64,000 nucleotides of DNA from assembly GCF_053078305.1 (NCBI RefSeq), contig NZ_CP166879.1. One strand, given 5' to 3'. Shown piece after piece: positions 14,484-64,000 of the stretch. The position numbers were made by a program, and so were the translations under genes. The notes under the pieces were generated by a model. It worked only from the letters and a program-made list of their open reading frames with translations, did not search any database and was not told the origin of the DNA. Every line of letters begins with the position of its first letter. Position 1 is the first letter of the stretch.

Positions 14484-14575
14484 AAAACAGTGAATGATAA
14501 CCTCGTTGCTCTTAAGCTCTGGCACAGTTGTTGCTACCACTGAAGCGCCAGAAGATATCGATTGAGAGGATTTGA

Positions 14576-15430
14576 ATGACTGACAAAATGCAAAGTTTAG
14601 CTTTAGCCCCAGTTGGCAACCTGGATTCCTACATCCGGGCAGCTAACGCGTGGCCGATGTTGTCGGCTGACGAGGAGCGGGCGCTGGCTGAAAAGCTGCA
14701 TTACCATGGCGATCTGGAAGCAGCTAAAACGCTGATCCTGTCTCACCTGCGGTTTGTTGTTCATATTGCTCGTAATTATGCGGGCTATGGCCTGCCACAG
14801 GCGGATTTGATTCAGGAAGGTAACATCGGCCTGATGAAAGCAGTGCGCCGTTTCAACCCGGAAGTGGGTGTGCGCCTGGTCTCCTTCGCCGTTCACTGGA
14901 TCAAAGCAGAGATCCACGAATACGTTCTGCGTAACTGGCGTATCGTCAAAGTTGCGACCACCAAAGCGCAGCGCAAACTGTTCTTCAACCTGCGTAAAAC
15001 CAAGCAGCGTCTGGGCTGGTTTAACCAGGATGAAGTCGAAATGGTGGCCCGTGAACTGGGCGTAACCAGCAAAGACGTACGTGAGATGGAATCACGTATG
15101 GCGGCACAGGACATGACCTTTGACCTGTCTTCCGACGACGATTCCGACAGCCAGCCGATGGCACCGGTGCTCTATCTGCAGGATAAATCATCTAACTTTG
15201 CCGACGGCATCGAAGATGATAACTGGGAAGAGCAGGCGGCAAACCGTCTGACCGATGCGATGCAGGGTCTGGACGAACGCAGCCAGGACATCATCCGTGC
15301 GCGCTGGCTGGACGAAGACAACAAGTCCACGTTGCAGGAACTGGCTGACCGTTACGGTGTTTCCGCTGAGCGTGTGCGCCAGCTGGAAAAGAACGCCATG
15401 AAAAAACTGCGCGCTGCTATAGAAGCGTAA
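14576..15430 (+). CDS. rpoH: RNA polymerase sigma-32 (heat-shock sigma factor)
   Basis: 284 aa. Contains the RpoH box ([17 protein letters not shown]) and sigma-70 regions 2 and 4. Confidence 0.98.
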
Positions 15431-31890: not shown

Positions 31891-32385
31891 TTATGAACAA
31901 CTGTCCATGATTTCGTTTAAGAATGAAGAGAAATCACTAAACGAACTGAATATATTTTCTGTGCCAATATTATCTCTAATTTCAAAAAAGTTACTTTTAA
32001 TGTCATAAGTAAATATTGAAATGCTATCATCCCCGATCACTAACCGTTCTTGTAGATCAGGGTTTATGAAATCATCATTATTTCTATAAAATTCATTTAC
32101 GGCAAAAAGGTTTTTAACTGAAGGTTCTGGAATCGAGAGGCTAAATAATCGTAATCCATTAACTTCGAATCCATCCATTGCTCTTAAAAAAGTAAGATAA
32201 TCAGGTTGATTCTTAAAAAGAATACTAACTTCATTACATAACTTCTCCAGGCAATTAGTTGAATTAGAATTAAATTCTATTTGGATTATACTTTCAATAA
32301 ATGATTCCTTGAGCGGTGCTTCAAATGGATAGTCTAAATCATTCATCATTTTTATTAATTTGTTTATTTGGGTTTTAGTCATCAT
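31891..32385 (-). CDS. yrhA: Putative immunity protein for the upstream Hcp-HNH toxin (intact yrhA-like gene)
   Basis: 164-aa acidic protein whose start sits in an ATGATGA overlap with the yhhZ stop, indicating translational coupling. AT-rich. Calling it the intact counterpart of the K-12 yrhA pseudogene is from memory. Confidence 0.65.
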   Translation of the reverse strand: MMTKTQINKLIKMMNDLDYPFEAPLKESFIESIIQIEFNSNSTNCLEKLCNEVSILFKNQPDYLTFLRAMDGFEVNGLRLFSLSIPEPSVKNLFAVNEFYRNNDDFINPDLQERLVIGDDSISIFTYDIKSNFFEIRDNIGTENIFSSFSDFSSFLNEIMDSCS

Positions 32386-33560
32386 TTTGTGGGTTCCATA
32401 ATATTTTTCATGGGAGGATAAATTGAGCCAGATGGAATGGCCCAGGGAGTGATTTTGCTTTCACCTACTAATATTCCCTTAGCTATTCGTGATTGCATGT
32501 TAGTAAAAACTTTATGATATGGTTCGTTTTCGATTAATACTAAATTTTCGAAATCATTAGTACCACCATCATCTAGAGATAGTTTATGGTGAACATTATA
32601 ATTTAGAGGAACATAGCCCTTTCTCATTCTTAAAAGGTCTTCGGTGTTGAATCTTCCAGATGCTTCGGAGGTTTTTGCAAGTTTGATAAGAAAATTTTTT
32701 CTTACAGTTTTGTTAAACTCCTTTCGTAAGTTAGCTAAGTCTTTTGAAGGTCTCTTAATGTATATTATTTCTATTATGTCTATGCCATCAAGAAGTTTTT
32801 GTTGACCTCTAAGTTTGCCTAAGTAACTATTTATTTCTGTATATGTATCAACTTTAGAACGCTTTGTTAAAAGAATAGATGCTGTTGCTATCGCTATGCC
32901 CGCTGTTTTTTCATTTAGTATTTGATCATAGCCTTTGATTGCATCTCCACCCAGTTTTTCCGCAGTATCTCTGAAACCTTCAATGTTCCCATTGTATACG
33001 CCACCAGCAGCAAGTAGCCTGCCAACAGCTTTGCTGTTTAACGTTTTGAAACGATTATTTGTTTGGTTTTTTGAATTTGGTAAAAACAAACGGTTATAAT
33101 TTTCAGGGAGTGCCAAATAGCTGAACTCGGTATTTGCGATAAGATGTTGACAGAGGATAAATTCATAACTAACAGTTATTGTTTCTGTATCCAGTTGATT
33201 TTCAATGATCTGATGATGAATAGCCGATAAAAAAGCGCCTCTTAGTTGTATATAATAATACTTTTCCCATCTGCCAAATCTATTGATTCTATAAAAGTCA
33301 AATTCCATAAATAATTGCTCATTATTGTTAATGGAATTAATAAGTAATGGAGTGCTTTTATCAATTAATTTACAAAATGTTATACCCTGTAACTGTGAAC
33401 CAAGCCCCGTATTAGTAATGCTATTTGCGAGTGAGAATGTAAATATTTCATTCTCATGCCCGCTCTGCCAGCGATTACCTATAGATTCAGTAGTCCCACA
33501 ACCTGCGGAGATGCTTCCTTGTTGTTCTCCCGTTACTGTCAGGTAAACAATATTACTCAT
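32382..33560 (-). CDS. yhhZ: Orphan T6SS Hcp-family protein with a C-terminal HNH-type nuclease toxin domain (Hcp-ET type)
   Basis: 392 aa. The N-terminal roughly 130 aa resemble Hcp. The C-terminus carries an HNH signature (NYNVHHKLSLDDGGTNDFENLVLIENEPYHKVF). AT-rich composition. Confidence 0.8.
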   Translation of the reverse strand: MSNIVYLTVTGEQQGSISAGCGTTESIGNRWQSGHENEIFTFSLANSITNTGLGSQLQGITFCKLIDKSTPLLINSINNNEQLFMEFDFYRINRFGRWEKYYYIQLRGAFLSAIHHQIIENQLDTETITVSYEFILCQHLIANTEFSYLALPENYNRLFLPNSKNQTNNRFKTLNSKAVGRLLAAGGVYNGNIEGFRDTAEKLGGDAIKGYDQILNEKTAGIAIATASILLTKRSKVDTYTEINSYLGKLRGQQKLLDGIDIIEIIYIKRPSKDLANLRKEFNKTVRKNFLIKLAKTSEASGRFNTEDLLRMRKGYVPLNYNVHHKLSLDDGGTNDFENLVLIENEPYHKVFTNMQSRIAKGILVGESKITPWAIPSGSIYPPMKNIMEPTK

Positions 33561-60950: not shown

Positions 60951-61709
60951 ATGAAACAAACACAACGTCACAACGGTATTATCGAACTGGTTAAACAGCA
61001 GGGTTATGTCAGTACCGAGGAGCTGGTGGAGCACTTCTCCGTCAGCCCGCAGACTATTCGCCGCGACCTCAACGAACTGGCAGAGCAAAACCTGATCCTG
61101 CGCCATCATGGCGGTGCGGCGCTGCCTTCCAGTTCGGTTAACACGCCGTGGCACGATCGTAAAGCCACCCAGACCGAAGAAAAAGAGAGGATTGCCCGTA
61201 AAGTGGCGGAGCAAATCCCCAACGGCTCGACGCTGTTTATCGATATCGGCACCACGCCGGAAGCGGTGGCGCACGCGCTGCTCAATCACAGCAATTTGCG
61301 CATTGTCACCAACAATCTCAATGTTGCTAACACGTTGATGGTAAAAGAAGATTTCCGCATTATTCTCGCCGGTGGCGAATTACGCAGCCGCGATGGCGGG
61401 ATCATTGGCGAAGCGACGCTCGATTTTATCTCCCAGTTCCGCCTTGATTTCGGCATTCTGGGGATAAGCGGCATCGATAGCGACGGCTCGCTGCTGGAGT
61501 TCGATTACCACGAAGTTCGCACCAAACGCGCCATTATTGAGAACTCGCGCCACGTTATGCTGGTTGTCGATCACTCCAAATTTGGCCGTAACGCGATGGT
61601 CAATATGGGCAGCATCAGCATGGTAGATGCCGTCTACACCGACGCCCCGCCGCCAGTAAGCGTGATGCAGGTGCTGACGGACCACCATATTCAACTGGAG
61701 CTGTGCTGA
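60951..61709 (+). CDS. glpR: DeoR-family glycerol-3-phosphate regulon repressor
   Basis: Trimmed to MKQTQRHNGIIELVKQQGYVSTEELVEHF giving 252 aa; N-terminal HTH. Confidence 0.93.
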   Translation: MKQTQRHNGIIELVKQQGYVSTEELVEHFSVSPQTIRRDLNELAEQNLILRHHGGAALPSSSVNTPWHDRKATQTEEKERIARKVAEQIPNGSTLFIDIGTTPEAVAHALLNHSNLRIVTNNLNVANTLMVKEDFRIILAGGELRSRDGGIIGEATLDFISQFRLDFGILGISGIDSDGSLLEFDYHEVRTKRAIIENSRHVMLVVDHSKFGRNAMVNMGSISMVDAVYTDAPPPVSVMQVLTDHHIQLELC

Positions 61710-63289
61710 TCCTGCAATGCTTCCCACGTCAGACCAAAACGCGCCAGGTATTTGCGTAGCCGATCCGCGTCATTGACGCTGGCTTTGCCCTGGCGCGAAA
61801 CGTCAAAAAGCTGGCGTCCGGCTGCGGAAAGCGACTTTGCCTGGCGGCAGATTGCGATAACGTGTTCCAGTTGCATACGGTCGAAGAGATCGATGTTTTC
61901 TGCCTCTGCGCCCAGTAGCTGCGTAAGCGCGGAGGGGCGGCTCTCCTGCCAGTTATAGCGCAGACGGTTTATCTCATCTTCAACCACGTCCAGAGTGATG
62001 CGTCCGCTAGTGGCAAAGGTAGCCATCCGCGTGACGCTGGCAGAAAGCTCGCGAAAGTTACCGCGCCATGTTGCCTGGGGAGATGTCGCAAAGGCCAGCC
62101 AGGCGCGCCGCGCTTCGGTGTTAAAACGCACGCTGTCGCCGGTGAGTGAAGCGTGGCGCTCCACTTCATAATCCAGGTTAGGTTCAATATCTTCCTGACG
62201 CTGGCGTAGCCCCGGCAGGGTGAAGGTCCAGAGATTGATCCGCGCGTATAGATCTTCGCGGAATTTGCCATCGGCAACCAGCTGGCGCAAATCACGCACC
62301 GTTCCGGCGATAAGCTGAAAATCACTGCTCACCTGGCGATCGCTGCCAAACGGATAAAAGGTTTTTTCTTCAATGGCTTTCAGCAGCATTGCCTGTTCGT
62401 CTGCGCCCAGTTCGCCAATCTCATCAAGAAACAACATTCCGCCGTTGGCGCTGCGTAATAATCCTTCACGAGATTCCCGCGCCCCGGTAAACGCGCCTTT
62501 CACATGACCAAACAGCGTCGACATGGCGGTATCGCCGCGCAGGGTTGCGCAGTTCACTTCCACAAACGCGCCGCTAAACTGATGCCGCGCCTGTTTTAAT
62601 TCAAATATACGTCGCGCCAGAAATGACTTGCCCGCACCGGTTGGGCCGTTTAGCAGGATCGGTGCGCGGGATTTAATCGCCACTTTTTCAATCTGCTCAA
62701 TCATGCGGTTGAAGTGGGGGTTACGCGTGGCAATACCGGACTTAAGAAAATCAAGCGTTTGCTGGCGTTCCTCGGCAAAGCGGCTGGCGATGGCGTTATA
62801 ACGGCTTAAATCGAGATCGATAATCGTCACTTCACCTGCGCCGCGCGGCTGTTCTTTTTTGCGCGGAGGTGAAGATTGTATCAACCGGGCGGGCAGGTAA
62901 CGCGCTTCAGCCAGCAGAAACCAGCAAATCTGCGCGACGTGGGTGCCGGTGGTGATGTGAATTAAATAGTCTTCTTTTTCTGGCTGAAACTCGTAACCAC
63001 GGGCGAAATCATGCAGGCAGGCGTAAACCTCTTCGAAATCCCACGGGTTATGCAGCTCAATCTCAACGCTCACCACTTCTGTTTCTGGCGAAACGCTGAC
63101 GATATCGCGTTTAAGCGTTTCAAACAGCGAGCGCGAGCGGGCGTCGTGCAATAATTCCAGTCGATCGATGACTAACGATTCTTGCTGGCATATACAGAGT
63201 GACGGACGCCATTTCGACCAGCGCTGACTGCCGCGTCCGGCATAATCCAGTACGGTGCCGACAAAGCCAAAAGCCACTGTTTTACGCAT
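61691..63289 (-). CDS. rtcR: Sigma-54-dependent transcriptional activator RtcR
   Basis: Trimmed to [11 protein letters not shown] giving 532 aa. AAA+ sigma-54 activator motifs ([14 protein letters not shown]). The 3' end overlaps glpR convergently. Confidence 0.92.
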
Positions 63290-63423
63290 CTTAGATATCC
63301 TTATAAAAGACGATATTTCATTATCGGTAAATCGGCTTTGCGGGAAATCTCCGGTTACGGACGTAAAGATATAATCTTTTTTAAAACAATGAATTAAAAA
63401 ATTAATCTGCTTATTTAATTTTC

Positions 63424-63439
63424 TGGCACGACGGTTGCA
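63424..63439 (+). promoter_or_regulatory. Sigma-54 promoter for rtcBA
   Basis: TGGCACGACGGTTGCA matches the -24/-12 consensus (TGGCAC, 5 nt, TTGCA) and lies about 37 bp upstream of the rtcB ATG. Confidence 0.85.
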
Positions 63440-63475
63440 ATTATCAGGACATACCAACGAAAAGAGAAAAACAAA

Positions 63476-64000
63476 ATGAATTACGAATTACTGACCACTG
63501 AAAATGCCTCGGTAAAAATGTGGACCAAAGGCGTGCCGGTAGAAGCCGATGCGCGTCAGCAACTTATTAATACGGCGAAGATGCCGTTTATTTTCAAACA
63601 TATTGCGGTAATGCCTGATGTACACCTGGGTAAAGGTTCCACCATTGGTAGCGTGATCCCGACCAAAGGGGCGATTATTCCGGCGGCGGTGGGCGTGGAT
63701 ATTGGCTGTGGAATGAACGCACTACGTACCGCTTTAACGGCGGCTGACCTGCCGGAAAACCTGGCGGAGCTGCGTCAGGCGATTGAAACTGCGGTGCCGC
63801 ACGGGCGTACCACTGGCCGTTGTAAACGTGATAAAGGCGCATGGGAAAACCCGCCTGTTAACGTCGATGCGAAATGGGCTGAGCTGGAGGCCGGTTATCA
63901 GTGGTTAACGCAAAAATATCCGCGTTTCCTTAACACTAACAACTATAAACACCTGGGAACGCTGGGAACGGGTAACCACTTTATTGAAATCTGCCTTGAT
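63476..64000 (+). CDS. rtcB: RNA-splicing ligase RtcB (partial, continues beyond window end)
   Basis: MNYELLTTENASVKMWTKGVPVEADARQQL... open to the window end; divergent from rtcR. Confidence 0.93.
   Translation, partial: MNYELLTTENASVKMWTKGVPVEADARQQLINTAKMPFIFKHIAVMPDVHLGKGSTIGSVIPTKGAIIPAAVGVDIGCGMNALRTALTAADLPENLAELRQAIETAVPHGRTTGRCKRDKGAWENPPVNVDAKWAELEAGYQWLTQKYPRFLNTNNYKHLGTLGTGNHFIEICLD

Follow-up and report, generated by a model that had tools for sequence, protein, structure and literature searches.

The rtcR–rtcB locus

The region described here lies at the end of a 64,000-nucleotide stretch of contig NZ_CP166879.1 (hereafter the window), where the gene order glpD, glpE, glpG, glpR, rtcR, rtcB is that of the E. 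coli chromosome. The last two of these genes diverge from one another, and in matching E. coli genomes the same two genes are annotated rtcR and rtcB. The features on which the analysis turns, together with one comparable promoter elsewhere in the window, are as follows.

61691-63289, minus strand: rtcR, encoding a 532-residue sigma-54 enhancer-binding activator with N-terminal RtcR/CARF-like and AAA+ domains
63311-63326: palindrome CGATATTTCATTATCG (CGATA-N6-TATCG), candidate RtcR enhancer (UAS), proposed from conservation
63384-63396, plus strand: IHF-like site AAACAATGAATTA, with one mismatch to WATCAA-N4-TTR, proposed from conservation
63424-63439, plus strand: sigma-54 promoter core, with the -24 element TGGCAC at 63424-63429 and the -12 element TTGCA at 63435-63439
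C63450, plus strand: predicted transcription start, 12 nt after the C (63438) of the -12 GC
63450-63475, plus strand: rtcB leader, 26 nt, with a conserved AACGAA box and a purine-rich RBS region, AAGAG, at 63462-63466
63476-64000, plus strand: first 175 codons of rtcB (RNA ligase), cut by the end of the window
14520-14535, plus strand: rpoH sigma-54 promoter TGGCACAGTTGTTGCT, a perfect consensus match 41 nt upstream of the ATG at 14576

Profile searches agree with both flanking assignments. The rtcR open reading frame matches the Pfam RtcR domain (PF06956) over residues 2-185 with an E-value of 2.5e-85 and Sigma54_activat (PF00158) with 8.4e-51, and its translation contains both the GAFTGA loop, which contacts sigma-54, and the Walker A motif GPTGAGKS; the 174 residues available of the rtcB product match Pfam RtcB (PF01139) with an E-value of 1.3e-40. 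With the RtcR match on the minus strand at 61691-63289 and the RtcB match on the plus strand from 63476, the divergent arrangement claimed in an earlier sequence-only reading of this DNA is borne out. That reading had also described the conserved regulatory layout as intact at the window edge. The window contains rtcB up to codon 175 and ends before rtcA, so this can be demonstrated only for rtcR, the promoter, and the beginning of rtcB; in K-12 and in strain TB06051, rtcA follows rtcB.

Residues 434-532 of RtcR (61691-61990, minus strand), where the DNA-binding helix-turn-helix would be looked for, gave no Pfam helix-turn-helix match at E-values up to 10, only noise. From its sequence, the DNA-binding domain of RtcR appears to be divergent from the Fis-type HTH_8 domain of most enhancer-binding proteins. 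Since these last 99 residues lack a Pfam helix-turn-helix, the DNA-binding step of the model presented below is taken from the literature and from annotation. At its other end rtcR is convergent with glpR (60951-61709, plus strand), which is apparently intact in the window and is annotated as a pseudogene in K-12 MG1655; the 3' ends of the two genes overlap by 19 nt.

A perfect sigma-54 promoter core upstream of rtcB

An exact search for the 16-mer TGGCACGACGGTTGCA located it once in the 64-kb window, at 63424-63439 on the plus strand. The sequence matches all 11 specified positions of the consensus TGGCAC-N5-TTGCW, and its GG (63425-63426) and GC (63437-63438) dinucleotides have the canonical separation of 10 bp. 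It lies in the 186-bp gap between rtcR and rtcB, is co-oriented with rtcB, and ends 36 nt before the rtcB ATG; the gene for the cognate enhancer-binding protein, rtcR, is adjacent to it and divergent from it. A sigma-54 -24/-12 element had been placed between the two genes at 63424-63480, an interval that extends from the -24 element to just beyond the rtcB ATG (63476-63478), and the exact 16-mer with its canonical spacing substantiates that placement.

The 16-mer was found in none of 100 dinucleotide-preserving shuffles of the window. When one mismatch to the consensus was allowed there were 3 matches in the window against 3.5 expected from the shuffles, which is no excess over chance. As motif counts of this kind are not significant, the argument is carried by position, orientation, and conservation. 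Perfect matches to TGGCAC-N5-TTGCW number two in the 64 kb, at 63424-63439 and at the rpoH site (14520-14535), and each stands a short way upstream of a gene in the same orientation whose sigma-54 promoter is documented. The consensus by which a real sigma-54 promoter can be recognized at rtcB from sequence alone thus also picks out that of rpoH.

The rpoH promoter, P6, is like that of rtcBA in being a perfect, intergenic, and correctly oriented match to the consensus, but it has no adjacent dedicated activator gene and its spacer sequence differs. Promoters of the sigma-70 and sigma-E types are also present at rpoH. In K-12 the rpoH site is the ChIP-seq peak OS36, listed beside the rtcB peak OS35, and the start predicted for it in the window falls 30 nt before the ATG, which is the published distance (PMC4591121). 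One further motif with a single mismatch, TGGCAGGCTACTTGCT at 33009-33024 on the minus strand, lies inside a 392-residue open reading frame (32382-33560) and in sense to it; intragenic and absent from the published ChIP-seq tables, it is probably a chance match.

Relationship to the E. coli K-12 and Salmonella promoters

Alignment of the intergenic region with that of K-12 MG1655 gives 97% identity, and the gene order in K-12 is the same, with glpR and rtcR followed by the divergent rtcB. The K-12 promoter PrtcBA is identical to the window from upstream of the -24 element through +2. Between the rtcR ATG and the -24 element the two differ by two SNPs only, at 63335 and 63407, and in the leader the window is 2 nt shorter (26 vs 28 nt) and has two substitutions at +3 to +8. 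The rtcBA sigma-54 promoter is already known and well characterized; about 20 sigma-54 promoters have experimental confirmation in E. coli, this one included, and work on its regulation by RtcR goes back to 1998. The original description and mapping of the promoter are reportedly those of Genschik et al. 1998 (J Biol Chem 273:25516).

In K-12 the sequence CTGGCACGACGGTTGCA is the intergenic sigma-54 ChIP-seq peak OS35 assigned to rtcB by Bonocora et al. 2015, where it stands 17-fold above threshold, 28 nt from rtcB, with its EcoCyc status given as experimentally confirmed (PMC4591121); it is also among the known sigma-54 promoters of Zhao et al. (PMC2831329). A reporter carrying 175 nt upstream of rtcB showed RtcR-dependent activity in the work of Engl et al. 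(PMC5175333). Kotta-Loizou et al., who describe the rtc promoter as comprising a UAS, an IHF binding site, and a -24/-12 site, likewise report RtcR-dependent activity of the rtcBA promoter, and they found the native promoter to be very weak in vitro, its near-consensus sequence notwithstanding (PMC9650030). From this literature on the identical K-12 sequence we take it that sigma-54 occupies the site, that activity depends on RtcR, and that a UAS and an IHF site exist. The published occupancy and activity data come from K-12 and Salmonella, and the RtcR-activated expression of rtcB proposed for the window is supported by the identity of its element with a K-12 promoter of published RtcR dependence (PMC5175333, PMC9650030).

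The Salmonella orthologue, TGGCACGCTGGTTGCAAT, which lies upstream of rsr-yrlBA-rtcBA (STM3521), is bound by sigma-54 and confers rpoN-dependent activity on a reporter (PMC3844500). Between the Salmonella Typhimurium core and that of the window there are two differences, both at spacer positions. The Salmonella promoter, like that of the window, is divergent from rtcR, and in Salmonella it is dependent on RtcR and sigma-54 (PMC3844500, PMC7790460, PMC9879122). What follows it differs: in Salmonella the promoter is followed by rsr (encoding a Ro60 homologue), the Y-RNA genes, and then rtcBA, whereas in the window the leader runs directly into rtcB.

Transcription start site and leader

The bases around the predicted start are A63449, C63450, and A63451. 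For the native PrtcBA, an ApC dinucleotide primer spanning -1/+1 has been used with ATP extension (PMC9650030); A63449-C63450 fits this primer and A63451 fits the extension by ATP, in agreement with the +1 at C63450 that is predicted by counting 12 nt from the C of the -12 GC. Applied to K-12, the same rule of 12 nt after the -12 GC yields a distance of 28 nt to the rtcB ATG, which is the distance tabulated for OS35. The leader of the window has 26 nt rather than 28 because of a 2-nt deletion.

Escherichia has two natural alleles of the leader, one 2 nt longer than the other, with the difference lying directly downstream of the start site. The allele of the window, ACATACCAACG (in the region of 63452-63457), is shared with E. 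albertii and two further Escherichia species, and the other, ACAGCAAACAACG, is present in K-12 and E. whittamii.

Conservation of the promoter across rtcR loci

A scan of reference genomes with the RtcR protein recovered 18 full-length rtcR loci, from Escherichia spp., Klebsiella, Intestinirhabdus, Superficieibacter, Iodobacter, Accumulibacter, Pseudomonas, Desulfobulbus, Desulfovibrio, and a Calditrichia genome. A locus was scored as matching when it contained GG-N10-GC with at least 9 of the 11 consensus positions. By this measure the layout that had been called conserved from the window, a divergent rtcR with a -24/-12 element, recurs in 16 of the 18 loci, in each of which the motif points away from rtcR and lies 127-161 nt from its start codon; the background rate in the same 18 loci predicts 0.16 loci with a motif in that zone by chance. 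A 17th locus, that of the Calditrichia genome, has TGGCACGCCAATTGAT, in which the -12 element is off consensus.

When nine enterobacterial sequences are aligned, the -24/-12 block shows no variation while the flanking intergenic DNA diverges. Four blocks are invariant across the nine: the palindrome, the -24/-12 core, the CA at the predicted start, and the AACG box of the leader. Escherichia and Klebsiella have rtcB as the first gene downstream, Intestinirhabdus and Superficieibacter resemble Salmonella in having an rsr-like gene there, the Desulfobulbus and Desulfovibrio loci begin with rtcA, and Pseudomonas has other genes. Since the first gene varies in this way, the conserved unit is the module of promoter and activator.

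Comparison of Intestinirhabdus and Superficieibacter with Escherichia shows the same leader, with its CA start and AACG box, whether the first gene is rsr/Ro-like or rtcB, and the first start codon is 186-190 nt from the rtcR ATG in rtcB-first (Escherichia) and rsr/Ro-like-first loci alike. K. oxytoca has ATGGCTAA at that start-codon position, and its rtcB start lies about 130 nt further on. Taken together, the displaced rtcB start in K. oxytoca and the shared leader and start position suggest that the ancestral operon was longer and that rsr and the Y-RNA genes were lost from it.

Candidate upstream elements

The existence of a UAS is stated in PMC9650030 and PMC5175333, neither of which gives its sequence or coordinates. 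A repeat search of the intergenic region returned low-information AT-rich inverted repeats only; the short-armed palindrome CGATA-N6-TATCG emerged from the comparison of loci. The palindrome is centered near -131 relative to the predicted start, at a distance of 22-37 nt from the rtcR start codon. Its arms are unchanged in 9 of 9 enterobacterial sequences, and the spacer and outer bases vary yet keep or extend the symmetry (GCGATAAT..ATTATCGC, GACGATAA..TTATCGTC). CGATA-N6-TATCG occurs once in the window against 0.05 expected, and the related dyads GATA-N6-TATC or TATC-N6-GATA are present at Pseudomonas, Accumulibacter, and Desulfogranum loci. We regard it as possible, if somewhat short of probable, that the palindrome is the so-far unpublished RtcR enhancer and also an operator for autoregulation of rtcR, with the related dyads representing a family-wide motif. 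Autoregulation is suggested as a possibility by the location of the palindrome, which lies inside or adjoins the rtcR leader or promoter.

The center of the IHF-like site is near -60 relative to the start, which places it downstream of the candidate UAS and upstream of the -24 element. Perfect matches to WATCAA-N4-TTR lie 35-36 nt before the -24 element at the Iodobacter, Accumulibacter, and three Pseudomonas loci, and all Escherichia loci have a one-mismatch IHF-like site 34 nt before it. A candidate enhancer palindrome near -131 with a putative IHF site near -60 is the usual arrangement of enhancer-dependent promoters; the exact coordinates of both elements, like that of the start site, are predictions. 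The footprint that they form with the conserved leader box, in which the IHF-like site keeps a fixed distance, could guide mutagenesis, which would serve the study of how damaged tRNA signals reach the rtcBA promoter.

Alternative explanations

The explanation that best accounts for these observations, and in which our confidence is very high, is that 63424-63439 serves the E. coli rtcBA RNA-repair operon as its sigma-54 (RpoN) dependent promoter, under the control of RtcR; no feature of the sequence speaks against this. Its motif, position, and orientation, the identity of the flanking genes, the identity with K-12, and the conservation across rtcR loci are all observed here; the confirmation has little significance beyond correct annotation. 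It is conceivable that sigma-54 polymerase binds the site in this strain but leaves it transcriptionally silent, with rtcB, if expressed, served by another promoter. For many of the sigma-54 sites in E. coli no output is known (PMC4591121), and in vitro the native rtcBA promoter has very low activity (PMC9650030). In addition, rtcA is outside the window and, according to PMC9650030, RtcA and RtcB are needed for RtcR activation, so that a downstream defect could silence the promoter. The identical K-12 promoter, however, has documented RtcR-dependent activity (PMC5175333, PMC9650030), rtcR is intact with its GAFTGA and Walker motifs present, and the motif lies between genes in the correct orientation and is conserved beside rtcR across phyla, all of which makes a silent site very improbable.

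We consider it slightly less probable again that a sigma-70 promoter drives rtcB and that the sigma-54 motif is secondary. The obvious vehicle for such a promoter would be TATAAT at 63370-63375 on the plus strand, a perfect -10 hexamer, but no acceptable -35 element is present 16-18 nt upstream of it and it is not conserved even within Escherichia; on these two grounds we rejected it as the rtcB promoter. A consensus scan of both strands of 63200-63560 found no sigma-70-type promoter, and the Salmonella region was chosen for its absence of predicted sigma-70 promoters and has rpoN-dependent activity (PMC3844500). The promoter of rtcR itself was not located by the scan of 63200-63560, and a terminator scan of the same interval found none. 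That a short consensus arose by chance in AT-rich intergenic DNA would agree with the count of one-mismatch matches, which are no commoner in the window than in shuffles, but the exact 16-mer appeared in 0 of 100 shuffles, its position and orientation are conserved in 16 of 18 distant loci where 0.16 would be expected, and the same sequence has ChIP-seq evidence (PMC4591121); a chance origin is already refuted by the conservation and the published binding data, and the probability that we assign to it is negligible.

A model for RtcR-dependent activation

With the RtcR-controlled sigma-54 promoter as the preferred reading, a mechanism can be proposed. Sigma-54 RNA polymerase would bind the -24 GG and -12 GC of 63424-63439 and be held there as a closed complex, while RtcR would be kept inactive through its CARF-like N-terminal domain until RNA-damage signals are received. 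In published work, RtcR activation has been linked to tRNA fragments that end in cyclic phosphates and also to RtcA and RtcB. Active RtcR would then oligomerize on an upstream enhancer, most likely CGATA-N6-TATCG at 63311-63326, and reach the polymerase by DNA looping, assisted by an IHF-induced bend near 63384-63396. ATP hydrolysis by RtcR would open the promoter, and transcription would proceed from about C63450 through the 26-nt leader into rtcB and then into rtcA beyond the window.

Variation among E. coli genomes

A 401-nt region containing the promoter was found in 4855 of 5426 complete E. coli genomes, and a 40-mer around the core in 4501 of the 5426, of which 2815 are identical; in a common one-SNP allele the SNP is upstream of the -24 element. 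E. coli TB06051 has a 100% match to the 401-nt query, yet across 3.8 kb it is separated from the window by 37 SNPs, for which reason it was rejected as the strain of origin. Its rtcA has a 1-nt deletion at nt 687 (GACCAGGGG to GACAGGGG), possibly an assembly error, which is annotated as a frameshift. Two other genomes carry natural disruptions of the promoter itself. The promoter of E. coli LB858871 is severed within the -24 element by a rearrangement bounded by IS1, which has also deleted the genes from rtcR through glpD, and in E. coli Res13-Sevr-PER06-05-b-A, IS5 is inserted directly after the -12 element (TTGCAATTAT).
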